A stretch of DNA of 51,356 nucleotides from a virus. Position 1 is the first letter of the stretch. Every line of letters begins with the position of its first letter. Location of the stretch: positions 1 to 51,356 of IMG/VR virus record IMGVR_UViG_3300001202_000003. One strand, given 5' to 3'. The translations under genes were made by a program, and so were the position numbers. Below are positions 4,534-51,356 of this stretch, in pieces. Below the pieces are notes generated by a model. It saw nothing but the letters and a program-made list of their open reading frames with translations, was not told where the DNA came from and ran no database searches.

Positions 4534-4608
4534 ATGTACGGGAGTATTAATTTAATGTAGTTAGAAACCACGTATGTAGTCGGGAGTATTAAGTTAAGGT
4601 TTTAGTTA
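4534..4608 (+). repeat. Two direct repeats ATGTA(GT)CGGGAGTATTAAKTTAA, 40 bp apart, upstream of the small terminase candidate
   Basis: atgtacgggagtattaatttaatgtagtta at 4534 and atgtagtcgggagtattaagttaaggttttagtta at 4574. Confidence 0.85.
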
Positions 4609-4658
4609 CATTAACACGGGTTTACTGTATTATAGTTTTATGAATTATTTTGTTTATT

Positions 4659-4690
4659 ATTAAAATTAAAAATTTAAAAATTTAAAATTT
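4659..4690. repeat. A/T-tract tandem repeat (TAAAATT AAAAATTT AAAAATTT AAAATTT)
   Basis: Read directly. Confidence 0.9.
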
Positions 4691-4712
4691 GTTGTGAAGG
4701 GTTGTTTTACTA

Positions 4713-9283: not shown

Positions 9284-9326
9284 AATAGGTTACCCAAGTT
9301 TTAATGAAATTTAATAGTACAATTAG

Positions 9327-9480
9327 AAAATTTTGGGCTGGATAAGTAAGGTGTTTACAAACGTATTTTATTGTTTCCTAGTGAACGTAAGTGAACGGCG
9401 TAGCCGTGATCGCAGCGTTAGCGTAAAACAATAAAACTTGGTTTGTCAATACTTTACGAAGGCTCCAGACCATTAAATTT
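9327..9480 (+). repeat. E1: GC-rich structured intergenic element, family copy 1 of 5 (sense to local transcription)
   Basis: Ends AAAATTTTGGGCTGGA ... AAGGCTCCAGACCATTAAATTT. Internal pairs are GTGTTTACAAAC/GTTTGTCAATAC and TTTTATTGTTT/AAACAATAAAA. Central hairpin ACGGC-gta-GCCGT is followed by GATCGCAGCGTTAGCGT. Confidence 0.85.
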
Positions 9481-9508
9481 TTGACACAACTAAAGAAAGG
9501 AAATAGTA

Positions 9509-11584: not shown

Positions 11585-11608
11585 TACATTTATTACAGCT
11601 TGTTGTGG

Positions 11609-11651
11609 AAGGGCGGTAGTGTTTCTTTAGTTGTGCGCTACCGCCCTTTTT
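11609..11651 (+). terminator. Rho-independent terminator after the capsid gene
   Basis: AAGGGCGGTAG-18 nt loop-CTACCGCCCTT followed by a T run. Confidence 0.8.
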
Positions 11652-22532: not shown

Positions 22533-22997
22533 ATGAGTAGTAATTTTACAGGTGGTAATCCTATTAGTGGAGCTAATTACCACACAAAAAACGGCATAAC
22601 ACGTGACGTAAATAGATTTAATAACACAGCATACCCGCACGGTGCTATTGTATTTCTAATTTGTGAAGGCAATATGCGCGGAGCTATTCACGATGGTAAA
22701 ACATGTGGTGGTGTCGCGCACTTTCCTTTGTTTAGCCCTAGCACTGACTTTTCAGCATTGTATGACTTAATAGATAATGCTACTAATCTAGACGGCAATG
22801 CTTCAATGGCTCCTGACGCTCCTGCGCCGAATAATTCTGTTATTGAAGATTTAATAGCACGTATTGAAGCTCTCGAAGAAGAAACCGTTAATAACGATGG
22901 AGCTGGCGCTAACACCCCGCCACCACAAGACCCTGTTGTTGACGTAGGTACTGTTGACCCTTCCGGCCCAGCAAACTCACCACCACTAACAGAATAA
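22533..22997 (+). CDS. HDGKTCGGV-motif protein, paralog 2
   Basis: AIVFLICEGNMRGAIHDGKTCGGVAHF aligns with EIVADMCECRRD...YAHDGKTCGGVRIG of ORF 15200. Pro/Ala-rich tail. Confidence 0.65.
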   Translation: MSSNFTGGNPISGANYHTKNGITRDVNRFNNTAYPHGAIVFLICEGNMRGAIHDGKTCGGVAHFPLFSPSTDFSALYDLIDNATNLDGNASMAPDAPAPNNSVIEDLIARIEALEEETVNNDGAGANTPPPQDPVVDVGTVDPSGPANSPPLTE

Positions 22998-23000
22998 TTA

Positions 23001-23147
23001 TTTAATTGGAATGAATTAGTACTTGACACGGATTTTTTGGCTGACAACGTGACCGCTAGGGAACGGCTTGCCGTTACCGCAGGGGGAACCCCGATCAGCC
23101 AAAACACTTGGTGTCAAGTATTCTAATTCAAAGGTTCCAATTATAAT
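23001..23147 (+). repeat. E2: GC-rich structured intergenic element, copy 2 of 5 (sense); the most rod-like copy
   Basis: Nested inverted repeats AATTGGAA/TTCCAATT, TGAATTAG/CTAATTCA, TACTTGACAC/GTGTCAAGTA and TTTTGGCTGA/TCAGCCAAAA. They enclose hairpins AACGGC-tt-GCCGTT and GGGG-gaa-CCCC. Confidence 0.85.
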
Positions 23148-23167
23148 AATTATGAGAAAGCACAACT

Positions 23168-23707
23168 ATGAATAATAATGAACAACTAAATAATCAAAAT
23201 ATTAATACTGATATACCTCAAGCAACACCTAAGCAAGAATTTGAAAAAGATTATCTTAATCAACTTGAGATATTGACTTTCGAAAACAATAAAGAAGCTT
23301 TAGGTACTATTGCTTGGATTGCTCATTTTGACGAAAGATTTAAAGATCAACCTTTTAGTCTTGTTATGAATGATATTTATGGTTCAGTGATACATAATCA
23401 ATATGTAATAGCAGGTCAACCAATGGGTGATAAAGAAAATTTATTCCCTGTAGCCTTTATTACATGGGGTATGTTTAATACTCCTGTTGCTACAATACGA
23501 GCAAATAACATTAGACCTCTTTCACCTTTAGAGTATAAATCTGGTAATATTGGATTTTTTACTATGTTTAGTTCTCCTTATGAAGAACCTGATAAAATGA
23601 TTGAACTAATGCGGGCAAAAAGCTCAAAGTTACAAAGTCTTTCAAGCATTTCATTTGTTGACAGATTGTTTAAACCAGACTATACTTTTAGGAGTAGACA
23701 AAGTTAA
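23168..23707 (+). CDS. HlyC/CyaC-like protein (RTX toxin-activating lysine-acyltransferase family fold); catalytic residues possibly substituted
   Basis: The recalled family motifs match in order and with matching spacing. These are LGTIAW, a Pro 12 residues after that Trp, QY starting 16 residues after that Pro, PVAFITW, SGN ending 27 residues after that Trp, and xSPY. This comes from memory of HlyC and CyaC sequences, not from a search. Confidence 0.45.
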   Translation: MNNNEQLNNQNINTDIPQATPKQEFEKDYLNQLEILTFENNKEALGTIAWIAHFDERFKDQPFSLVMNDIYGSVIHNQYVIAGQPMGDKENLFPVAFITWGMFNTPVATIRANNIRPLSPLEYKSGNIGFFTMFSSPYEEPDKMIELMRAKSSKLQSLSSISFVDRLFKPDYTFRSRQS

Positions 23708-32100: not shown

Positions 32101-34344
32101 AATACAGGCAGGCCAGTAGAGTATGTCGTAGTTGATACGCCTGAAAAGGCAAGGCGTGAAGCTTTAAAATTACAACAAGAATATAATCGTCGGGATAAAG
32201 ACGAAGGACGTAGCGGTGGTTATGGTATTGTTGACCGTAATTCAGTAGAAGAATACAAAAATTTAAATCATCAGGTAGTTACTAGCGATGTGTTGCGTAG
32301 TGGTACTGGTGATGGAGCTAAAGCTGCTGGAGAGCGTTCTGGTATAATTACTGATATTAAATATTTACAAAATATGTTTGATGAAACTAATGCTATTTTT
32401 GACGACATGAGAAAACAATACACAGTTACTCGTTTCGCTAATGAATTAGAAAATGTTCGTAGCTTACAAAGAATAGCTGCTGTTAATAATAGAGGGCTTA
32501 CTAATGTCTTTACAGGTGAAAGTGGCGATAGCTTTACTGACGTATTTAGCGGTTTTAGTAATTTGTTACTTGGTGATAATCAGCGCAATGTTGGAAGCCT
32601 TTACGGTGCTGCGGGGACTATAATGGATGAAGCATTTGCTAATTCTTGGAATGAAGCACGTAATTTATGGACTAAGTTAGTACCTGAACGTGGTGGCAAT
32701 AAAGCATTAAATGCTGCTGTTAAAAAATATGCTGAAAATAATAATCATAATCCAATTGAGTACGCGGCTAATATAGCTGCTAGAAGTATTAGCAAAGGTA
32801 GTGGGTTAACTAGTGATAAATTAGTTAGGCAGTTAGCAGGACTTACTACAGGGCTTGCCCTTAAATGGGGTGAAGTTGGGCATGCTGCTTTGACTACTGC
32901 TAGTATTTTAAGCACTACTCCACACGCTGTTAGATACGCCAAAGCTTTTGCTAATGAAACAGCAGAAGATTACGCTACTAGGGTAGGTCACACACATGAT
33001 TTTCTTGACGGTAGTCATGCTATGCCTAATCCAGTAAAGTTAACACTTAGTACTATTATGAAACGTATGCGCGGTGATTATAAAGATGTTTTAGCTAAAG
33101 CTGCTGAAAAAGGTTACACTGATGCTAAGATGGCTGAATTTGTAGATGAGTTTGCTGTTAAACGTGGTGGTAAAATTGGAGATGTATTAGCTAAAGCCGA
33201 TAAATATACAGGTTATGTTAGCACACAATCAGAAGCTTGGGCTAGAGAAACGGCGTTTTTAACTGGCTACGAAATGTATCGCAATATTGGTAAAAACAGT
33301 GAGGATATTTCTATGGCTATGGCTAATGTTATAGCTAATAGAGCTATCGCTGATTATAGACCGCATCAAAGAGCTGAATTGTTTAAAGGTACTGCCGGAG
33401 TGCCGCTGGCTATGTTCCAAACATTTGCTATTAATTATTTCCAAAGACTTGGAAGTGCTATTGAGAACAAAGCTTACGGCGCTGCATTTACACAAGCTGG
33501 AACTCAAGCAATGATGTTTGGCGGTCAATCAGTGCCGGGTTTTGAGTTGTTTAATGAAGTTTTATTAGAAAACTGGAATGAGACACGCAGACCAGAAGAT
33601 TTATTTCGTGAAGGTTTTGGTAATGAAAATTTAGGTAGGATGCTTTTATACGGAGCGCCTACTACTTTACCCTTAATGCTTGGCTTTGATAACGGTATTG
33701 CTTTACACAACCGTGGTGAAATGAGTTTGCCGAGAAATATAACACCTGCTACTATGTTCAATACTCCGTTTTTTAGCATGGCCAGTAGAACAGGCGAGGC
33801 TCTCAAACGTGGTTTTAATACTGCAATTGGAAATTTTGGGGAAGGCGGTGCTGACGCGCTCGCTGAAAGTTTAATATTCTCTGTGCCTAATAGACCTTTG
33901 AGGGGGTTATTAGATGTTACATTGCAAGGATACTCTACTAATGCACACGGTGATATTGTCAACGATGAACTTGATAGTATATTTGAAATTGGTACACATG
34001 TTACAGGTTTGCAGACCGTCAGGCAGGCTGAGAACGCAGCTTCTTTGTGGCGTGATAGACAACGTATTTTATCAGAACGTGCATCTATGGACCGCCTGAA
34101 CGCGGCTGTGACTGCTCGTATCCGTAGAAACGGATTAAACACTCTAACAAATACGGATATAGGTGAAATTTCAGAAGAATACTTTAGTAGTGGTGGAAGT
34201 GAACGCGGTTTTAAATCTTGGTTAAAACGAACTATTGCTAAAGCTGAAATTAGTAAAGTTGATAGAGAAGTGTTGAAAGCTATCCGTAGTACTAGAAACG
34301 GTAGAGACCTACAACACTTCTTAGGTATTGATGACGAAGAGTAA
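29155..34344 (+). CDS. Giant internal virion or ejection protein, 1729 aa
   Basis: Last and largest gene of the virion operon, starting 1 nt after the upstream stop. Analogous in position and size to podovirus core or ejection proteins. No enzymatic motif recognised. Confidence 0.6.
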   Translation: MSMRDFLANNSNFEETVRGDNQVFEQFLQTPEEREEANQTTFSDIVFSPAGIALGAADTLLQSIGLVDENDVGNALRGISSAAGQIYNRNQDGYRLLGDIGTAFTGAGLATKLLRAPSLARTLATAGRTSKTARLAEKLIVSDQGRVDNYVNLLTKKAVALGQAGIRNPINVESFRQLNNATRLKQFTNDLKEGVAAEAFIATFQSESELFFPEGQSFSDVTIGAIGGLGIGNVIGQAIVTPAIKKAARAGGIAASKRGVEYSTNPSTNFIIADGVEQEFREGKFADNINALTNQDGTVKSEIDNQITEAQRQKNNSVVTLQQAEPIKGLSTVMLGDANKSIVKSLETITQSDPRLGANIVSIEPVEFLYEFNGAKGQNILKELKLEQADLNKQRLSAAAGIEENLIDSKLENVNRQIADLSGDIVPLKVNQLGLVTSDINSRTVFDEKRISTSTIPREINNNNIGKTIHLTRVDGGDNALQAGVDVSGKMFVRKGKKLEQISSSAGLGDYNGSKIYAAHNRALNDLGKILRGDEGVVQPRAATKITKADSFETLDYVQQALKLYGNNGDFKSIAKVIDLSDFEDINDIKFHTINKKFDRFKNIFRNYENNLRNGNATNTPVEDFSTQLMLPAGDANGTSNYVTEFFLDVIKEGKTVGKDYNELMNNFTQHFAADASERTVQGVRINNGLNAGNLLEFDYIGAIKSNNESFALALRRNSDEDELIPARALSDVARLTEEQRQLDLGARISNDNVAGPFLQILHDQTQNLAPLVDDIKRGSSELTQGATSNPIFPRLGKFSITTQAFDNRGVTGANSADTLSDVLSRNMSVASRNYIQENMQGVREIIKPGNEDSAFNLLLGISALRQGWDLETTVFDDLGRLKLNPDSVRNKAIVNSNNDLVRTKYNNKVPEFLPDIGVDSNIPLRFDELAQRSFKELNGVSDIDWSFRNTLARNLNTTGRQYKVGHVPIPRSYEDKIFVVDNTGRPVEYVVVDTPEKARREALKLQQEYNRRDKDEGRSGGYGIVDRNSVEEYKNLNHQVVTSDVLRSGTGDGAKAAGERSGIITDIKYLQNMFDETNAIFDDMRKQYTVTRFANELENVRSLQRIAAVNNRGLTNVFTGESGDSFTDVFSGFSNLLLGDNQRNVGSLYGAAGTIMDEAFANSWNEARNLWTKLVPERGGNKALNAAVKKYAENNNHNPIEYAANIAARSISKGSGLTSDKLVRQLAGLTTGLALKWGEVGHAALTTASILSTTPHAVRYAKAFANETAEDYATRVGHTHDFLDGSHAMPNPVKLTLSTIMKRMRGDYKDVLAKAAEKGYTDAKMAEFVDEFAVKRGGKIGDVLAKADKYTGYVSTQSEAWARETAFLTGYEMYRNIGKNSEDISMAMANVIANRAIADYRPHQRAELFKGTAGVPLAMFQTFAINYFQRLGSAIENKAYGAAFTQAGTQAMMFGGQSVPGFELFNEVLLENWNETRRPEDLFREGFGNENLGRMLLYGAPTTLPLMLGFDNGIALHNRGEMSLPRNITPATMFNTPFFSMASRTGEALKRGFNTAIGNFGEGGADALAESLIFSVPNRPLRGLLDVTLQGYSTNAHGDIVNDELDSIFEIGTHVTGLQTVRQAENAASLWRDRQRILSERASMDRLNAAVTARIRRNGLNTLTNTDIGEISEEYFSSGGSERGFKSWLKRTIAKAEISKVDREVLKAIRSTRNGRDLQHFLGIDDEE

Positions 34345-34347
34345 ATT

Positions 34348-34836
34348 TTATTCTGCGAATAGTTTATTTGATCTACTTGTAGATTTTGATTTACGTAAAG
34401 GTTTTGTATTAGAAGTTACTTTAACTTCAGAAGTTTTTTCATTTTTAAATCTATCACTAGTTACTATTTGATGTTGTGTTACATTAATAGTTTTTTCGAA
34501 ATCTACTTTTTCAAATAGTTCTTCTGGAGATATATCTAAAATATCTCCAGCTACTACCAAACCAGCAATAGAACATTCAAGTTGATTTAGCCTCTCAACA
34601 GCTTTGGCCATAGTTTCTAAAAGTTTTGCTTTATTATTAATTAAAGTGTGTAGCCGTTCTGTTATAATAGCGCGTTCTTTTTTAGTGCTTTCAAAACTAT
34701 TAATTGCTTTTATATTAGCTGTGGCAGCTTGCGCTATTTCATTTTCCATGGAAATAACATTGCTCTCAGCTTTAATAGATTTATCAGTATTAGCTATCAG
34801 ATCTTGTACGTTTGATTGTTGCATTTGAGTATTCAT
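34348..34836 (-). CDS. Coiled-coil hypothetical protein, 162 aa
   Basis: Last gene of the minus-strand block. Its stop lies 3 nt from the stop of the convergent 1729-aa gene. Confidence 0.6.
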   Translation of the reverse strand: MNTQMQQSNVQDLIANTDKSIKAESNVISMENEIAQAATANIKAINSFESTKKERAIITERLHTLINNKAKLLETMAKAVERLNQLECSIAGLVVAGDILDISPEELFEKVDFEKTINVTQHQIVTSDRFKNEKTSEVKVTSNTKPLRKSKSTSRSNKLFAE

Positions 34837-35388: not shown

Positions 35389-35409
35389 GACTTTACTTCC
35401 TTTATTATT

Positions 35410-35556
35410 AAAATTAGTGGTCGGAACCTTCTCATTCCGGGGTGTGACTTGTTCGTTTCAGTGCTTCGCTTCGCTGTGGCGATCTGGCGATCGCCTCTGG
35501 CTCACTATGGCACTTACACTAAGTCAACCCGCTCATTCATTCCGCCCAAATTTTAA
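35410..35556 (-). repeat. E3: GC-rich structured intergenic element, copy 3 of 5 (minus orientation, sense to the minus-strand operon)
   Basis: On the minus strand: AAAATTTGGGCGGAA ... GGTTGAC ... GGCGATC-gcca-GATCGCC-ACAGCGAAGCGAAGC ... AAGTCAC ... AAGGTTCCGACC. It fills the gap between ORFs 35566 and 35388. Confidence 0.85.
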
Positions 35557-35565
35557 ACTCTCGTA

Positions 35566-41900: not shown

Positions 41901-41928
41901 GGTAGTACTTTCTTAAATGATTTAAGTT

Positions 41929-42038
41929 AGAGGCGGCTCCTAAATAGGGCGCCGCCTCTCATCCTGATTAATGAATAATGCCCTTTTTTATAGGGGGAGG
42001 CAAGGGCATTACCAGTAGGGGGTACAGTATTAATCAGG
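41929..42038 (-). other. Cluster of GC-rich stem-loops 3' of ORF 42030..42698; possible terminator or mRNA-stabilising structures
   Basis: AGAGGCGGC/GCCGCCTCT at 41929-41959. AATGCCCTT/AAGGGCATT at 41977-42010, nested inside CCTGATTAAT/ATTAATCAGG at 41963-42038. No clean T-run follows, so these are not canonical terminators. Confidence 0.4.
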
Positions 42039-42698
42039 AATTACTGTGAAGTCGCCAAGTAGGTTAATACGGCTATCAACACGTTCATTGCCATCAGCAG
42101 TAGTATAGCGATTGTGAACCATTTCAGCGGTGTATTTACTACCGACAGTAGCATCCATTAACTCAGCAATACCGTTTTCACTTTCAGCATCGATGCCGTC
42201 ATAAACTTCCTTGCCGATAATCTTACTACAATATGTTACTAGCTGATTAAGGCCTGATTGTTTAATGGTACCATTTTCATCTGGAAGGCCATCATTGCCA
42301 AACATGATATTAGTAACTTCCTTTTTGCCAACGTATGACTGCATTTGCTCATTAGTAACAACCTTACCCTTGTCATTAACATACTTGCTTTCAGGATCAA
42401 CAGCGATGATAGTGCTGACAATCGAAAGCATTAATGCTTCTTGACCTTGGTGCGGGTGGTCATCTGCTTTAATAGAATAGTTACCTTGTTTAATCTCGTC
42501 AACGGTGAAGGCGTAAATGCCTTTTGGTTTAAGACCACCTTCAATTAGTTGAGCATCCGCAAGTTTATTACCAAGCAGTGTTTCCATTGTTAGAGGACCA
42601 GTAGACGTTAAAGTCTGAGACTCTACAGGGGATTCGTTATTAGTTGTAGCGGCTGTATCGCCACCTCCAGTATTTCCAAACATATTATTTCCTTTCAT
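42030..42698 (-). CDS. Hypothetical, probably highly expressed protein, 222 aa; an ssDNA-binding role is possible from context only
   Basis: Flanked by tandem repeats upstream and stem-loops downstream. Lies next to a Sak4-like ATPase. No SSB motif recognised. Confidence 0.55.
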   Translation of the reverse strand: MKGNNMFGNTGGGDTAATTNNESPVESQTLTSTGPLTMETLLGNKLADAQLIEGGLKPKGIYAFTVDEIKQGNYSIKADDHPHQGQEALMLSIVSTIIAVDPESKYVNDKGKVVTNEQMQSYVGKKEVTNIMFGNDGLPDENGTIKQSGLNQLVTYCSKIIGKEVYDGIDAESENGIAELMDATVGSKYTAEMVHNRYTTADGNERVDSRINLLGDFTVIPD

Positions 42699-42716
42699 GT
42701 TATGGATAAGTGAACT

Positions 42717-42764
42717 TTATTGTTAAACTTTTATTGTTAAACTTTTATTGTTAAACTTTTATTG
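42717..42764 (-). repeat. Tandem 14-bp repeat, 3 copies plus a partial fourth (plus strand TTATTGTTAAACTT; minus strand AAGTTTAACAATAA), in the leader of ORF 42030..42698
   Basis: Read directly. The partial fourth copy contains the stop codon of ORF 42759..43715. Confidence 0.95.
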
Positions 42765-43715
42765 GAATTTAATGTCTTTACCGCTAAGCAAACATATTGC
42801 AGGCATTTCTTTCTCATCTAAGTGATTACCTTCTACGGGAACACTGGCTTCCCTACAATATTCTTTCCATGTCCATGAAGGAAATTCAAATGTATCAGGC
42901 CTAAGCTTTGCTGCACCGCCAGCTCTATTATTAGCCGGCCTGCTATCGATAATAGTTTTAGTCGCGTCTTTGTTATGCCGGAACCATAGTACATCGGATA
43001 AAACCGCAGGTAACTTACTTGCATGATTACCTGACGACGACAACACTTGTGTTATTAATGCTTTTTTAGTAACAGCACCTTCTTTAACCTCGCGTTCATA
43101 ATCGTCTTGATGCCCTGACATTATAACGTGACAAGGCAACTTATTAATACAGCTAAGTATGTTATCCAGAACAAGATTAGCATAACCAAAGTATGAAAAT
43201 TTGTTTTTATCGTTTGTGAGTTTTCCTTCGAAGGGATTAATGCCGTTAGCTTGTTGGTATTCACTGGCCACGTCCTTTACAACTGCTGTCCAACTATCAA
43301 TAAATAAAACATCTTTACGTGAAAGTTTAGACAGATCAACACATAGATAATCTTTATCTTCTTTAACTTTATTAAAAGATATTTCATTACCGCTTTCATA
43401 ATCGAATATAAATTCTTGCTTTTCGAATAGTAGCGTTAGAAATAGTAAGAAACTAGTACTAGTTGGATTAGGATTTAAAGCGATTGGGATTATGTGTACA
43501 TTATTGTGAACGTTTTCAGGTAGTTGGTTTAGTATTCCTGTGTTGCGATCACCGTTTAGTAAATACACGTTATGTGTTTCCCCAGCCGTACCCGCCCACC
43601 AAGTTTTCCTTGACTTGGCAGGACCGTATATTAATACACGTGTAGGGTCTCTTGATGGGTCCGCCGAGCTACTGCTCTCACCAAACTTAGTACGTAATTT
43701 TGAAAAATCTACCAT
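42759..43715 (-). CDS. AAA_24 / Sak4-like recombination ATPase
   Basis: Walker A RVLIYGPAKSRKTWWAG, Walker B-like VLFIDSW. Size and context fit a recombination module. Confidence 0.6.
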   Translation of the reverse strand: MVDFSKLRTKFGESSSSADPSRDPTRVLIYGPAKSRKTWWAGTAGETHNVYLLNGDRNTGILNQLPENVHNNVHIIPIALNPNPTSTSFLLFLTLLFEKQEFIFDYESGNEISFNKVKEDKDYLCVDLSKLSRKDVLFIDSWTAVVKDVASEYQQANGINPFEGKLTNDKNKFSYFGYANLVLDNILSCINKLPCHVIMSGHQDDYEREVKEGAVTKKALITQVLSSSGNHASKLPAVLSDVLWFRHNKDATKTIIDSRPANNRAGGAAKLRPDTFEFPSWTWKEYCREASVPVEGNHLDEKEMPAICLLSGKDIKFQ

Positions 43716-47091: not shown

Positions 47092-47865
47092 TTAAGTACG
47101 ATATAACGCTCGAGTCGGGTATTTTAAATGATTTTTATTCTCTTGAATAAACGCAGGCACACTAAAACAAGGGCATGCTTTAGCTGCATATTGATTATGT
47201 CCTGATAGTTTATTAATATTAATGTTAAATTTCATTAAATTATTAATAAGCCAAAAAAACGTTTTGAATTGTTTTGCACTGTAATGCTCAGTAAAAGCAT
47301 CAGTTTCTGAACCACCAAAACCACCAGCGAGGGCTATACCTACAGTGCCTGTGTTTTTACCTTTTGTGTGTGCCCCAGTGTTATCTAAAGGCCTACATAC
47401 AGTAATTTGACCAAGTCTATTAATAAAGTAATGGTATCCTATATCTGACCAGCCGTTATCCCTTACGTGCCATTTTATTAGATCAGAATGCGCTTGATTA
47501 ATACCAATATCACCATTCCAACTACCTACTCTTGTTGCTGTTGTGTGGATAATTATTTCGTCAATGAAACGCGGTGTCTTAAAGAAATAACCAAGATCTT
47601 TGGTTTGTATCGTTAGTGTGCTGTTATAATTATCTAAAATAGCACGAGCGTAAACAGCAGGCTGCCATGCTTTTTCAACATGTATCTCAGGCACTTTTGC
47701 AGTAGCTTTAGCATTAATATATTTGTTCTTTTCAATCTTTTTGATAATACTTTCAGCAGCTTCGTCATCAATTAACGTGTCCACTTCGTCATTGTCAAAC
47801 AATTCGTCAAGGAATGACATTAACATTAAGAAAATATTACGAGAATTTTCAGATTGATTTGACAT
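47092..47865 (-). CDS. N-acetylmuramoyl-L-alanine amidase (Amidase_2/PGRP type), probable endolysin
   Basis: IIIHTTAT, GYHYFINRLGQ, GAHTKGKNTGTVGIALAGG and SGHNQYAAKACPCF. ATG at 47865 is preferred; the track start at 47904 is a TTG. Confidence 0.85.
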   Translation of the reverse strand: MSNQSENSRNIFLMLMSFLDELFDNDEVDTLIDDEAAESIIKKIEKNKYINAKATAKVPEIHVEKAWQPAVYARAILDNYNSTLTIQTKDLGYFFKTPRFIDEIIIHTTATRVGSWNGDIGINQAHSDLIKWHVRDNGWSDIGYHYFINRLGQITVCRPLDNTGAHTKGKNTGTVGIALAGGFGGSETDAFTEHYSAKQFKTFFWLINNLMKFNININKLSGHNQYAAKACPCFSVPAFIQENKNHLKYPTRALYRT

Positions 47866-47962
47866 TTTACTAATACCTTTTTCTGTGTTGTTACAATAAT
47901 ACAATATCTTAACTGATTTGTTAACTTACCCTAGCATAAGAGTTACTACTTGTCAATAGGGT

Positions 47963-48289
47963 TTATTTTTTTACTTTTCTTTTTTTATATGCTTTATATT
48001 CTTTTTCTAATGAATTATGAACTTTTAAGATCATTTCAATAGTAGATTTTTTTCTTGAGAATTTAATATAAATAATAAAAAGAATTACGCCTGATTTTTT
48101 AATAGTATTTATATCTGATATAATATCTTTATCTTTAGGTTTTTCAGTCAACAATACAATGCCTGAATTTGCAATGCTTCTACGACTAGTATTAATATTA
48201 TATTTATGCTTTAAAAATTCTATGAATATTTCTGTCTCACGATAAAAAGCAGTTAGTACTATTGAATTTAGATTAATAAACTGAGTCAT
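47963..48289 (-). CDS. Hypothetical protein, 108 aa, very AT-rich
   Basis: ORF whose ATG overlaps (ATGA) the stop of an alternative frame of the upstream gene. Confidence 0.5.
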   Translation of the reverse strand: MTQFINLNSIVLTAFYRETEIFIEFLKHKYNINTSRRSIANSGIVLLTEKPKDKDIISDINTIKKSGVILFIIYIKFSRKKSTIEMILKVHNSLEKEYKAYKKRKVKK

Positions 48290-48842
48290 AATTTGTAGCT
48301 TTCTTGCCTATAAATTGTTGCTAAATCTTGCATAATAGCACCTTGAACTTTATTATCATTAGCCATAGCAATGTGCCCTGATTTAATTTTTGTTTGGCAT
48401 ATTGAACCGATTGATTTACTGAGTTTTGGAAGTGTTTTATATGTTTTATTAAGTGCCTATTTTGATAAGCTAGCGTCATGTCTATGCCACAGAAGTAGTC
48501 TATAACATTGTTATAACCGATTTGAACAGGTGTTTTTGCTCTATAATTAATATATTTTAATCCATCACGAAAACCGTTACTGTGTCCTATTATTACGTTT
48601 AGGTAATTAACATTATTTAGAATATTAAAGCTTTCTGTGTTAAATGCTCTACCCATCCAAGACATATCATTTCCGTCAGATGAATAAATATTTACTATTG
48701 AATTTGGAAACTCTGTGGTAATACGTTTCTTTAATTTTTTGGCCCACCGTTGGAACATCCATGTACCTATGATAGGAATAGAAGAACCTAAGCCGCACAC
48801 TAGTGTTACATTTAATATTAATTCTTTTTTATTAACTGTCAT
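48286..48842 (-). CDS. Small lipase/esterase-like alpha/beta hydrolase, interrupted by a -1 frame break at an A5 run (48387-48391)
   Basis: Frame 0 (48321..48842) has the oxyanion-type LVCGLGSS and the nucleophile elbow IIGHSNG. The -1 frame downstream reads IKSGHIAMANDNKVQGAIMQDLATIYRQESYKL. That is a typical catalytic-His C-terminus (compare Bacillus LipA [21 protein letters not shown]). It ends in an ATGA overlap with the next gene. Confidence 0.6.
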
Positions 48843-48880
48843 TTTACATAATTCCTCATTTTATATTTAACGCGAAATAA

Positions 48881-49022
48881 TTATGGTCTGGAACCTTATT
48901 CGATAAGTTGACTCGTTCACTGCGGTGCTACGCTGACGCTGCGGTGAGGCTGACGCCTCACCTACGGCTCGCTTTTGGCACCTACGTGCGTCAACCAATC
49001 TCATATCCAGCCCAAATTTTTT
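48881..49022 (-). repeat. E4: GC-rich structured intergenic element, copy 4 of 5 (minus orientation, sense to the minus-strand operon)
   Basis: On the minus strand: AAAAAATTTGGGCTGGA ... GGTTGAC ... GGTGAGGC-gtca-GCCTCACC-GCAGCGTCAGCGTAGC ... GAGTCAAC ... AAGGTTCCAGACCATAA. Confidence 0.85.
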
Positions 49023-49065
49023 AGCTCTTATTAGTACATTTTTCAAAAATCATTACCTGATTGGT

Positions 49066-49216
49066 TAAATTTTTGGCCGGAAAAAGAATACGTGTTGACT
49101 AGTGAAAGCGATAAAACCGACACGCAGGGGAGGGCTTGCCCTCACCGTTAGCGTTAGCGTCAATCGCTGTAACGAATAAGTCAATACTATTCGCAAGGTT
49201 CCGGCTAATTAAATTT
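49066..49216 (+). repeat. E5: GC-rich structured intergenic element, copy 5 of 5 (plus orientation, antisense to local transcription; head-to-head with E4)
   Basis: TAAATTTTTGGCCGGAA ... GAATA ... GTTGAC ... AGCGAT ... GGGGAGGGC-tt-GCCCTCACC-GTTAGCGTTAGCGTC ... ATCGCT ... GTCAA ... TATTC ... AAGGTTCCGGCTAATTAAATTT. Confidence 0.85.
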
Positions 49217-49250
49217 AATGTTATTGTTTTAATTATTTCATTATTTCCAT

Positions 49251-49526
49251 TCACCAAGCTTGAGGGTGAGTTATTCCATACATTCTAGCCGTGTCTTTTT
49301 TTAAAAATGATTTAAAGTCTTTAATAGTTAATTCCACAAACATATCATCGTCGTAGCCTTTTGTTTTCCAACTAATATAATTGGCATAGACATTACAAAT
49401 AACAATATTAACAGGCATTTCATTTTTAATAAAGTCACGTAACTTTTTAGGCATTGCCATTAACTGCGTTTCCCAAGCATCATTCTCAGACACACTTTTT
49501 AATGTTGAGTTATTATTTTTTGACAT
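49251..49526 (-). CDS. Hypothetical protein, 91 aa
   Basis: ORF starting 2 nt after the helicase stop. Confidence 0.55.
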   Translation of the reverse strand: MSKNNNSTLKSVSENDAWETQLMAMPKKLRDFIKNEMPVNIVICNVYANYISWKTKGYDDDMFVELTIKDFKSFLKKDTARMYGITHPQAW

Positions 49527-49528
49527 AA

Positions 49529-51356
49529 CTACAAATCAATCCCTTTCATTTTATCCATGTCAAAACCACTAATATAACTATTAATCTTTTCATCCATAGT
49601 ACTACCTTTAATGCGCATATTATTAACACAACGTTTTAACGCATATTTAGTACATAACAACGTCACATTTTCAACACAACGCGTTACAGCCGTGTACAAC
49701 AATTCATTAAATAACATTTGTCCGTGACAATCATGTAAGCAGATGAACACATTTCTAAACCCACTACCTTGTGATTTGTGTATCGTTATCCAATAAGCTA
49801 ATGCTAAATTCTCAATCTGTGTACTAGTTTCGAATAAATGATGATGTGCTAAACCTCCTGCGTCATCTTCTTCTAAATAATCAAACTGTATCTCACAAAA
49901 GTGACTGGCTTTTCTAAGCCCAGTACCTTCATCAGTAACATCAGCGTCACCAATGACATTATTATCGCCTTTATATAACCCGCCGCCAAACATGGCATTA
50001 ACTTTATCCCGCTGCTTTTTAAGCTTCTGCTCTTTGCGACGTTCCTCTAACTCCTTACCTACATCAAATTCCAAGCCTTCAAATTCACCAGTTTTACCTT
50101 GCCCTGCACCTAGATTACTATTATTATAATGCTCGCCACTAATACCAGCATTAGCATTAATGCGGTCAATCCATCCAAGCATGCCATTATAAACACCTAT
50201 TTCATTATCATTTTTCAAATTAATAACACGATCACCAACGGCAAATTTTTGCTGATTACGCATTGTTTTGATTAACATTATGTCATTATCAGGATTAACT
50301 ATTTTTCTAGTCCTAACATTAAGCATTTCTTGACCTAACGTACCAACATTACTAGGCGTCAACAATATGTCTTGCTCAGGGTCATACCTACCTTCTGCAT
50401 ATGCTTTATTTATAAAATTCTCAACCTGTTGCGCTGCAATATTTTCATTCTTATCTATGCCTAATATTTTAAAATTGTCACTAACTTTAGGCATTTTACC
50501 ACTACGAATTAAGTTAGCATTACTAATAACATCACCTTCTTTTTGGCGGTATATTTGAGTTAATTCCACTGTAGGATATTTAGCTAATAATAAAGGATGT
50601 ATAGAACTGTCTAAAACAGGTTGTAATTGTGCGAGGTCACCTATTGTTATTATTCTGCAATCTTCTGGCAATGCATCTAGCAACATCTTCAACAACTTAA
50701 CACCTACCATCGATATTTCATCAATAATAACTAAATCAAAATCTAATTTAACCGCTTCTTGTTCTTTACGCGTCATACCGCTATCATACTCACTACAAGG
50801 GTAGCCCTCAGCGTTAATCCACACACCATTATGACAACGTGGCTCAAAGAATTTTTTATTCAAAGTCTTATAAGCCTGCTCTTTTTTATCGTAATGTTCT
50901 ATCTCACGACTTACAGGCCCAAAATTTATTATCTTATGAATAGTATTACAGTTAGCCTTAAACTCATTAGGCACAACTCTACGCAGTGTTTTAACTGCCA
51001 GTCCTGTAAACGCACCCATCGAGAAATTAAATGTGTGTGCTGTTAAATGTGAATGGTTACTAACGTGTTTGTTTTTCGAAATAGTACCGCTTTCAATTAA
51101 TTGCCTGACCATTTCCAAAACAGTAGTAGTTTTACCAGTACCCGCGTAGCCAATAATATTACAGCGTTTTTCTTGCAGTGCCATTGTAATAGCTGACTGT
51201 TGTTTCGCATTGAGTTTTATTTCTTCACGTGATTGCGGCTGCGTAGGTTCTTTATTGCCATTAATTTCATCACACAAAACTTCTAAAGCTTGCCTTTTTC
51301 CCGCAGGTAATTCATAGTTATCATTTAAGCCGTCTACTAAGTCATCTACTAAATTA
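49529..51356 (-). CDS. RecD/Dda-like SF1 DNA helicase; the 5' end wraps to 126..1
   Basis: Walker A IIGYAGTGKTTT, Walker B LVIIDEISMV, and C-terminal ITIHKSQGSGFRNVFI and LYTAVTRC motifs. The frame stays open to the window end. Confidence 0.9.
   Translation of the reverse strand, partial: NLVDDLVDGLNDNYELPAGKRQALEVLCDEINGNKEPTQPQSREEIKLNAKQQSAITMALQEKRCNIIGYAGTGKTTTVLEMVRQLIESGTISKNKHVSNHSHLTAHTFNFSMGAFTGLAVKTLRRVVPNEFKANCNTIHKIINFGPVSREIEHYDKKEQAYKTLNKKFFEPRCHNGVWINAEGYPCSEYDSGMTRKEQEAVKLDFDLVIIDEISMVGVKLLKMLLDALPEDCRIITIGDLAQLQPVLDSSIHPLLLAKYPTVELTQIYRQKEGDVISNANLIRSGKMPKVSDNFKILGIDKNENIAAQQVENFINKAYAEGRYDPEQDILLTPSNVGTLGQEMLNVRTRKIVNPDNDIMLIKTMRNQQKFAVGDRVINLKNDNEIGVYNGMLGWIDRINANAGISGEHYNNSNLGAGQGKTGEFEGLEFDVGKELEERRKEQKLKKQRDKVNAMFGGGLYKGDNNVIGDADVTDEGTGLRKASHFCEIQFDYLEEDDAGGLAHHHLFETSTQIENLALAYWITIHKSQGSGFRNVFICLHDCHGQMLFNELLYTAVTRCVENVTLLCTKYALKRCVNNMRIKGSTMDEKINSYISGFDMDKMKGIDL
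51308..51356. repeat. Terminal overlap, copy B (identical to 1-49)
   Basis: Same 49-mer as at 1-49. Confidence 0.95.

Follow-up and report, generated by a model that had tools for sequence, protein, structure and literature searches.

The DNA analysed here, referred to as the window, is the whole 51,356-nt stretch of IMG/VR record IMGVR_UViG_3300001202_000003, a complete, circularly permuted phage contig of ~51.3 kb. A gap of 408 nt between two of its minus-strand open reading frames (ORFs), 49251..49526 and 48321..48842, was found to contain two homologous elements in opposite orientation, designated E4 and E5. These elements are genuine, old and diverged members of an undescribed family of structured intergenic hairpins that is specific to one uncultured phage clade. 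Five copies of the family were identified in the window (E4, E5 and the copies at 9322-9485, 22994-23155 and 35405-35558, designated X9, X23 and X35), and nothing further was detected there even with the search filters off.

The phage belongs to a group of uncultured podophages. An exact 49-nt direct repeat at 1-49 and 51308-51356 indicated a circular or circularly permuted assembly. The plus-strand structural arm extended from ~1.9 to 34.3 kb and the minus-strand early/replication arm from 34.3 to 51.3 kb, running on to 267-1142. Recognisable genes encoded a DNA polymerase A, a primase, an SF1B helicase, a PD-(D/E)XK nuclease, a Sak4-like annealase, an SLT transglycosylase and an amidase; an SU10-type capsid and portal were recognised in relatives. 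No DNA match to the window was found among the GenBank phages, where the best portal relatives were ~21% identical.

The E4/E5 gap

The boundaries of E4 and E5 were obtained with nhmmer and a covariance model and were slightly wider than the limits given in an earlier note on this sequence (48881-49216); the E-values for E4 and E5 (Table 1) were obtained with the covariance model on the whole window with filters off. The earlier note had placed two inverted copies in the gap, with their ends facing each other across about 43 nt. This arrangement was confirmed by both methods, the AAATTTGG(G/C)C ends of the two elements facing each other over ~40-48 nt, depending on where the ends were placed. 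The facing heads of the pair were AAATTTGGGC and AAATTTTTGGCC. The head of E4 (AAATTTGGGCTGGA) was located at 49016 and its tail (AAGGTTCCAGACC) at ~48885, and E4 lay 32 nt upstream of the start codon of the hydrolase-like ORF. The statement that E5 was the sole antisense copy was also borne out, since it was the only one of the five window copies that opposed its flanking genes.

No convincing promoter was identified in the E4-E5 spacer, and the promoter scan gave no match in the spacer or beside either element. Two candidate divergent promoters read by eye in the spacer (TTGAAA-17-TAAAAA and TTCAAA-17-TTAAAT) failed the consensus scan, and no promoter was conserved upstream of other copies. 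The promoters that are recognisable in this phage, with TTGACA and GTTAAC palindromes, were not found in the spacer.

Table 1. Positions of the elements, neighbouring genes and bracketed ORFs in the window and in related contigs (L numbers).
Feature	Position	Strand	Description
E4	48874..49024	-	Family copy; fold strand sense to the flanking genes; 62 bits, E = 1.8e-13
Spacer between heads	49025..49063	.	AT-rich, 26% GC; holds the palindrome CATTTTTCAAAAATC; no ORF
E5	49064..49217	+	Family copy; fold strand antisense to the flanking minus-strand genes; 43.2 bits, E = 9.7e-09
X9	9322..9485	+	Family copy between the portal gene and the next structural gene; 159.7 bits
X23	22994..23155	+	Family copy, subtype with TTGACACGG...CTTGGTGTCAAG; just upstream of the HlyC-like acyltransferase gene; positional ortholog in L143
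X35	35405..35558	-	Family copy between an 89-aa ORF and the SLT transglycosylase gene; 20.7 bits, weakest copy
91-aa ORF	49251..49526	-	Upstream of the pair; conserved in L120 (94 aa) and L122 (95 aa)
Hydrolase-like accessory ORF	48321..48842	-	Downstream of the pair; GHSNG motif; 31% GC
108-aa ORFan	47963..48289	-	21% GC, lowest of the minus-strand block
Promoter-like sequence	47905..47962	-	CTATTGACAAGTA...TATGCTAGG, then a GTTAAC-type palindrome; upstream of the amidase gene
Antisense-context copies	E5; L122:12264-12419; L121:4754-4909; L125:8447-8609; L162:3536-3697; L172:9307-9463; L175:8313-8476; L173:1474-1638		Fold strand antisense to flanking genes
Pair interior, window			Nothing (~40-48 nt)
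Pair cargo, L122			60-aa ORF
Pair cargo, L121			86-aa ORF
Pair cargo, L162			85-aa and 194-aa ORFs
Pair cargo, L173			135-aa and 99-aa ORFs
Pair cargo, L175	8313-9979		92-aa ORF, AAA_33 kinase-like gene and Pyr_excise glycosylase gene
Tail-to-tail pair, L125			Sole pair of this kind; around an 81-aa ORF and the amidase gene

An undescribed family of intergenic hairpins

Relatives were found through helicase homologs and a portal alignment, which gave 12 related contigs. Since RNAalifold returned no consensus structure for a plain MAFFT alignment of 13 copies, the covariance model was seeded from A4, a five-copy MAFFT alignment consisting of X9, the portal-site copies of L126, L123 and L127, and a copy from another site (L125:7107-7258, or L125a). 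With this model, 26 copies were identified in 13 contigs, namely the window and the 12 related phage contigs. Each genome carried 1-5 copies of 145-166 nt, and copies within a genome were ~63% identical. E4 and E5 were ~66-70% identical and did not form a closest pair, E4 having its nearest relative in X35 (71% identical). A recent inverted duplication as the source of E4 and E5 was rejected, their identity of ~66% being the same as that between E5 and X35 or L122a.

All of the copies were intergenic and were tightly packed in operons, in the order stop codon, element, ribosome-binding site and start codon; the distance from a copy to the following start codon was 13-53 nt, or else the copy preceded a promoter. 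Some sites were conserved in core modules, such as the position after the portal gene, which was occupied in six related contigs (L126, L127, L123, L129, L153 and L174), and the position upstream of the HlyC-like acyltransferase gene in the window and L143. Other sites were in variable intervals. In L162, the junction at which the early arm converges with the structural arm was occupied precisely by a copy (4542-4702). The promoter-like sequence of the amidase gene (CTATTGACA-N17-TA..) was conserved in the window (47905-47962) and its two closest relatives (L120:13100-13140 and L122:12835-12880); a family copy was present just upstream of this promoter in L120 and L122 and none was present there in the window.

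The gene directly downstream of X23 in the structural arm (23168-23707, plus strand) encoded an HlyC-type RTX-toxin acyltransferase family protein (PF02794, E = 4.9e-08), which was kept in L143 (IMG/VR contig 3300009073_000006) with 42% identity.

A search of the whole window against Rfam 15 at gathering thresholds gave no match, and only matches with E >2, far below threshold, were seen in 48800-49300; tRNA and tmRNA scans found none. When the matches from pattern scans of IMG/VR and of the GTDB one-genome-per-species collection (185,579 genomes) were screened with the model, two related IMG/VR phage contigs were all that remained; the patterns used covered part of the family. The family therefore appears to be clade-specific and not a host repeat. 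The pattern used in the first collection scan (GGAACCTT..CCVGCCMAAA) was too loose, and all 119 of its IMG/VR matches failed the profile.

The same data bear on the proposal that the elements are selfish miniature mobile hairpin repeats of a REP/BIME/REPIN-like or MITE-like kind, spreading inside these phage genomes and tolerated nowhere but in intergenic space, with the inverted pairs as by-products. The family is multi-copy, intergenic and palindromic, with AAATTT-type ends, and neighbouring copies alternate in orientation, as they do in BIME clusters. The subtypes were not strictly positional, X23 being closest to the amidase-site copies of L122 and L120 (75-79%) and E4, E5 and X35 grouping together, and site occupancy differed among the relatives. 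Because the AAATTT-like ends are self-complementary, target-site duplications were indistinguishable from an extension of the stem. However, the post-portal copy persisted in relatives whose portal protein was 37-62% identical to that of the window, the arms co-varied rather than conserving a transposase-binding sequence, there were as few as 1-5 copies per genome, and the pattern scan and model gave no copies in unrelated phages or in the species genomes. Furthermore, no mobilising enzyme was found: transposase, integrase and RNase III were not detected among 35 window ORFs compared with Pfam and PHROGs, a search in which about half of the proteins were unmatched and most structural-arm ORFs were not scanned. 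A selfish repeat is, in our judgement, an unlikely explanation.

Structure, covariation and strand polarity

Every window copy folded into a long and imperfect hairpin that was significantly more stable than dinucleotide shuffles of its sequence (z-scores, -3.5 to -5.3). The stems were ~60 bp in length and a small side hairpin was located near the tip, off-centre. Along the fold strand the motifs followed the order GGA..TTGAC/TTTAC..CCGyAGG..GGC-loop-GCC..CACCGyAG..GTCAA..bulged AAGGyTCC. GGA was at the base, TTGAC/TTTAC paired with GTCAA, and the GGC-loop-GCC tip was followed by CACCGyAG and the small second hairpin; the bulged AAGGyTCC occurred on the 3' arm only.

In the 26-copy alignment, standard pairs occupied 90.2% of the pair cells, compared to 34-40% in slid controls, compensatory changes affecting both sides were present in 43 of 45 pairs, and the covariation score was 0.755, compared to at most 0.109 in controls (0/500 shuffles reached the observed values); because this alignment was fitted to the model structure, these numbers are inflated towards that structure. 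In A4, an unfitted plain MAFFT alignment of five copies, compensatory changes were found in 24 of 45 pairs.

The same family strand was the more stable strand in all 26 copies, by 0.2 to 29 kcal/mol. The minus-strand fold of E4 had an energy of -56.9 kcal/mol and its plus-strand fold -53.7; for E5 the values were -54.9 (plus strand) and -46.5 (minus strand), and the consensus pairs of E5 included seven G:U and no A:C. The fold strand was the local mRNA strand in 18 of the 26 copies and was antisense to the flanking genes in the other eight (Table 1). The numbers of G:U and A:C at consensus pairs were 53:11 in the 18 sense-context copies and 29:3 in the eight antisense-context copies. E5 was the positional ortholog of L122:12264-12419, both copies directly following the homolog of the 91-aa ORF. 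This orthology indicates that the inverted copies are old and that their structure has been kept on the strand that is not gene-sense, which is the most puzzling result of the analysis.

Inverted pairs around accessory genes

Seven pairs of copies were located less than 1.5 kb apart. All seven were inverted and six were head-to-head, with the gene-antisense copy first. By our calculation, the chance of 7/7 inverted pairs under independent orientation (8/26 inverted) was ~0.003, or ~0.015 when orthologous pairs were merged. The pair members in the relatives were separated by 0.2-1.3 kb of coding sequence, and the cargo proteins were unrelated to one another; a shared cargo protein that might act as a binding partner was not found among these ORFs. 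The head-to-head layout of E4 and E5 is one case of a recurrent design around accessory-gene slots. The E5-E4 pair of the window is such a bracket with nothing inside, and AT-rich accessory genes lie just downstream of it.

The clearest example of cargo in a bracket is the three-gene block of L175. This block was just upstream of the helicase gene, and its glycosylase was of the T4 endonuclease V type (PF03013), a pyrimidine-dimer glycosylase.

In the earlier note the pair was regarded as a possible cassette junction bordering the block at 47963-48842. In general terms this idea was supported by the helicase-to-amidase interval, which was hypervariable and differed in gene content in every relative, and by the inverted pairs that bracketed unrelated accessory ORFs in the relatives. 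The specific block did not fit the proposal, since it lay outside the pair and not between the copies. The two genes of the block had also been described as the most AT-rich of the minus-strand genes; this was correct for the 108-aa ORF, but the GC content of the hydrolase-like ORF, though low, was matched by several other ORFs of 28.5-30.8%. Among the fetched relatives, a homolog of the hydrolase-like ORF was present only in L120, and a homolog of the 108-aa ORF was present in none. The note had held that finding the same genes without the elements in relatives would tell against a junction, and the comparison partly gave this result: in L120, the closest relative, the hydrolase homolog directly followed the 94-aa ORF, with no element at that position, and an element followed the hydrolase homolog instead.

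At 48427/48428 the window lacked 37 nt that were present in Logan contig SRR2835678_6566 (L171:7007-7043), the sequences being otherwise identical (0 mismatches in 5.8 kb). Inclusion of these nucleotides gave a hydrolase-like ORF of 197 aa that overlapped the start of the 108-aa ORF and aligned to the L120 homolog over its full length. In the window this ORF was frameshifted to 173 aa by the deletion, which may be a real variant or an assembly difference.

The positions of the copies were also considered in relation to replication. If the elements were ssi-like origin or priming signals, the pair would flank a bidirectional origin and the hairpins would lie on the lagging-strand template. All five window copies fitted a single origin in the spacer, the copies on its left (E4 and X35) folding on the minus strand and those on its right (E5, X9 and X23) on the plus strand; the pair also adjoined the helicase gene, and X35 the primase gene. 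Two relatives contradicted a pair-centred origin, however. In IMGVR_UViG_3300035698_002915, which has its pair at ~38.2-39.4 kb, the portal-site copy ~24 kb to the right folded on the wrong strand, and in L125 the pair was tail-to-tail. Moreover, pairs were present in at least three different intervals, with unrelated sequence or no sequence between them. An origin function is very improbable.

Folding of the whole gap

It had also been suggested in the earlier note that the two elements, as inverted homologs, could form one long duplex in a read-through transcript and, in the DNA, a large inverted repeat that might extrude a cruciform or serve as a recombination substrate. The inverted homology was supported by the present analysis. 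When the whole gap was folded in silico, the E4/E5 duplex was the minimum-energy structure on both strands, with -122.5 kcal/mol compared to -103.4 for two separate rods on the mRNA strand, and -123.0 compared to -108.6 on the plus strand, so that the duplex was favoured by 14-19 kcal/mol. This preference was unexceptional, however; at -13.8 kcal/mol it ranked 21st among 272 arbitrary family pairs, and the equivalent pairs of L122 and L121 had no duplex preference (+36.7 and -0.3, respectively). The long duplex therefore stood as a computed minimum but not as a conserved property, and it is a by-product of shared ancestry rather than a selected feature. With arms that were ~66-70% identical, the repeat was a poor substrate for cruciform extrusion or recombination, and this part of the suggestion was not upheld. 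In addition, co-transcriptional folding would be expected to complete E5 before E4 was made, and in the relatives coding sequence intervenes between the pair members. That the pair functions as one large inverted repeat, whether as an RNA duplex of >100 bp, a cruciform or a recombination substrate, is hardly credible on these results.

Possible function of the elements

The reading we prefer, and hold tentatively, is that the elements may be orientation-specific punctuation elements at the transcript level that also mark accessory-gene slots. The intercistronic position, the orientation of the majority of copies, the copy at the convergent end in L162 and the geometry of the pairs all fit such a role. 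The element would be active as folded RNA and would affect only those transcripts that run through it from head to tail, in which it might be a processing structure or a 3'-end-forming and stabilising structure with a role comparable to that of the phage T7 RNase III sites. For a copy standing alone, the target would be the operon mRNA. Within a head-to-head pair, the sense transcript would be the target of the downstream member (E4 in the window), and the upstream member (E5) would be placed for antisense transcripts leaving the accessory slot. Such a pair could insulate, in both directions, a slot where foreign AT-rich genes come and go.

Several results weigh against a role in the transcript. 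It would require antisense RNA over the E5-type copies, the transcription of either strand being assumed, and 8 of the 26 copies keep their structure on the strand other than the local mRNA. No -35/-10 sequence was conserved in the aligned upstream flanks of 17 copies and no spacer promoter passed the scan; with no scanned or conserved promoter at the heads, antisense transcription is unsupported. No terminator-like site was found in 47800-49600 in the search for intrinsic terminators, and the copies had no clean U-tract directly after the stem, the 3' flank being A/T-mixed. Copies located between the small and large terminase genes, and between the portal and scaffold genes, cannot be efficient terminators. 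The pairing numbers of the fitted alignment are inflated, as described above. Finally, the conserved unpaired motifs suggest a specific partner, and a role as single-stranded DNA is a simpler explanation of the independence from gene orientation.

The elements would then be folded single-stranded DNA sites for a phage recombination or replication protein, with the inverted pairs as attC-like or PeSL-like boundaries of cassette exchange. Consistent with this, the polarity was independent of gene orientation, the eight antisense copies keeping the family-strand G:U bias, and there were conserved bulges and unpaired motifs, as in attC sites. The copies were enriched in hypervariable intervals, where they bracketed unrelated cargo, the hairpins were stable under DNA parameters too, and the phage encodes a Sak4-like annealase, a PD-(D/E)XK nuclease and an SF1B helicase. 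Against it, no integrase, transposase or HUH enzyme was found among the 35 scanned window ORFs, and the pair members fold on opposite strands, unlike those of attC arrays or IS200/IS605 ends. The portal-site and HlyC-site copies are in conserved modules without variable cargo, the within-genome identity of ~63% is too low for ordinary homologous exchange, and no pair of empty and filled sites with a precise junction was recovered. This alternative is possible but doubtful.

A further proposal is that the elements are strand-specific folded recognition sites of an unrecognised cassette system of lytic phages, in which the head-to-head pairs are slots for the insertion, swap or loss of genes. 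The window pair would then be an empty slot and the hairpins, as DNA or RNA, would be recognised by an unannotated phage protein. Such a system would be a functional parallel to the integron attC sites, with a different architecture and without a tyrosine integrase. We regard it as decidedly unlikely.

If transcript punctuation or insulation is indeed the function, the elements show how this podophage group segments its operons and shields its core genes from new AT-rich genes. If they are folded-DNA or mobile boundary elements, they provide a handle on accessory-gene shuffling in lytic phages and on the long-standing question of mosaicism. In either case the family is a well-supported structured motif that is missing from Rfam, and its covariance model can be used for annotation.

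Other features of the window

A long non-coding control region with several TTGACA-type promoter-like sites was present at 1143-1927, between the divergent arms. It contained repeated GTTAAC..GTTAAC palindromes, which were also present downstream of the amidase promoter at 47895-47927, together with a run of nine G at 1640-1648 and approximately five tandem TTAAACACAA units at 1867-1905. An operator or origin may be located here. At 42716-42764 a 14-nt unit (TTTATTGTTAAACT) occurred in three exact tandem copies, in the intergenic position between 42030..42698 and 42759..43715, the latter being the Sak4-like gene.

A canonical GC-rich hairpin with a T-run was located at 11608-11650, just 3' of the major capsid gene, which is a classic position for a terminator, and two adjacent strong canonical GC-rich hairpins were located in the gap at 41.9-42.0 kb (41925-42030). 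These hairpins show that ordinary intrinsic terminators, from which the long family elements differ, are in use in the host. The two arms converged at 34344-34348, where the 1729-aa ORF at the end of the structural arm and the 162-aa ORF at the end of the early arm were only 3 nt apart, with no terminator between them.

Comparison with known systems

Phage T7 carries a set of RNase III processing sites (R0.3, R1.1 and others), reported by Dunn and Studier. Like these sites, the elements described here are related, positionally conserved intercistronic hairpins with internal loops in polycistronic phage operons, and the presumed role, punctuation and stabilising of mRNA, may be analogous. In contrast to the T7 sites, they are ~3 times longer, have a side hairpin and conserved bulged motifs, and in a third of the copies have the fold strand antisense to the genes. 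The intercistronic position was common to all copies, and placement on the mRNA strand was seen in 18 of 26.

ERIC and Correia elements are imperfect palindromes of ~125-155 bp that are transcribed in operons in either direction and have orientation-dependent effects on mRNA. They are abundant in host chromosomes and have recognisable terminal repeats and target duplications, whereas the present family is specific to a phage clade and its arms co-vary. Scattered copies of the MITE type were not seen either, the scans giving only two related IMG/VR phage contigs with patterns that cover part of the family. The GC-rich stem and immediate U-tract of an intrinsic terminator were absent.

The PeSL (promoter-early stem-loops) of T4-type phages are small units in which a strong sigma-70 promoter is joined to an effective terminator, and they act through homologous recombination between similar copies (PMC2839356, PMC4122927). 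They resemble the present elements as repeated intergenic stem-loops in hyperplastic regions, flanking non-essential ORFans that vary between related phages (PMC2839356, PMC4122927). Variable ORFans in hyperplastic regions were found here too, but an adjoining sigma-70-like promoter and a compact intrinsic terminator were not; no promoter or terminator signature was found, the copies are ~63% identical and the pairs are inverted.

REPs, which are associated with a RAYT transposase, are 20-40 nt in length, and their copy numbers run from tens to hundreds (PMC3116915, PMC3337134). The REP, BIME and REPIN sequences share with the present family an extragenic location, hairpin formation, multiple copies, alternating neighbours, long persistence and vertical inheritance (PMC3116915, PMC3337134). 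In contrast to REP and REPIN, the phage elements are ~150 nt long, asymmetric (polar) and present in 1-5 copies, and no RAYT was found among the 35 window ORFs. In place of short symmetric palindromes, the window had five asymmetric copies within the family length range of 145-166 nt.

Integron attC sites are 57-141 nt in length, lie in one orientation, carry R and L boxes (GTTRRRY) and require the IntI integrase (PMC5027507, PMC3053210). Like the present elements, they are imperfect palindromes that work as a folded single strand, with structure conserved above sequence; unpaired features give them strand polarity, and they sit between promoterless accessory ORFs (PMC5027507, PMC3053210). Paired copies here fold on opposite strands, in contrast to attC sites. 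The R''/R' box arrangement (RYYYAAC ... GTTRRRY) was not seen, GTTAAAT occurring by the heads or tails of E4 and E5 and inconsistently elsewhere. Nor was there a single orientation with an integrase: 8 of 26 copies and 7 of 7 close pairs were inverted, and no integrase was found. A property in common with attC sites is the strand-specific fold, the family strand being the more stable in 26 of 26 copies and carrying conserved bulges.

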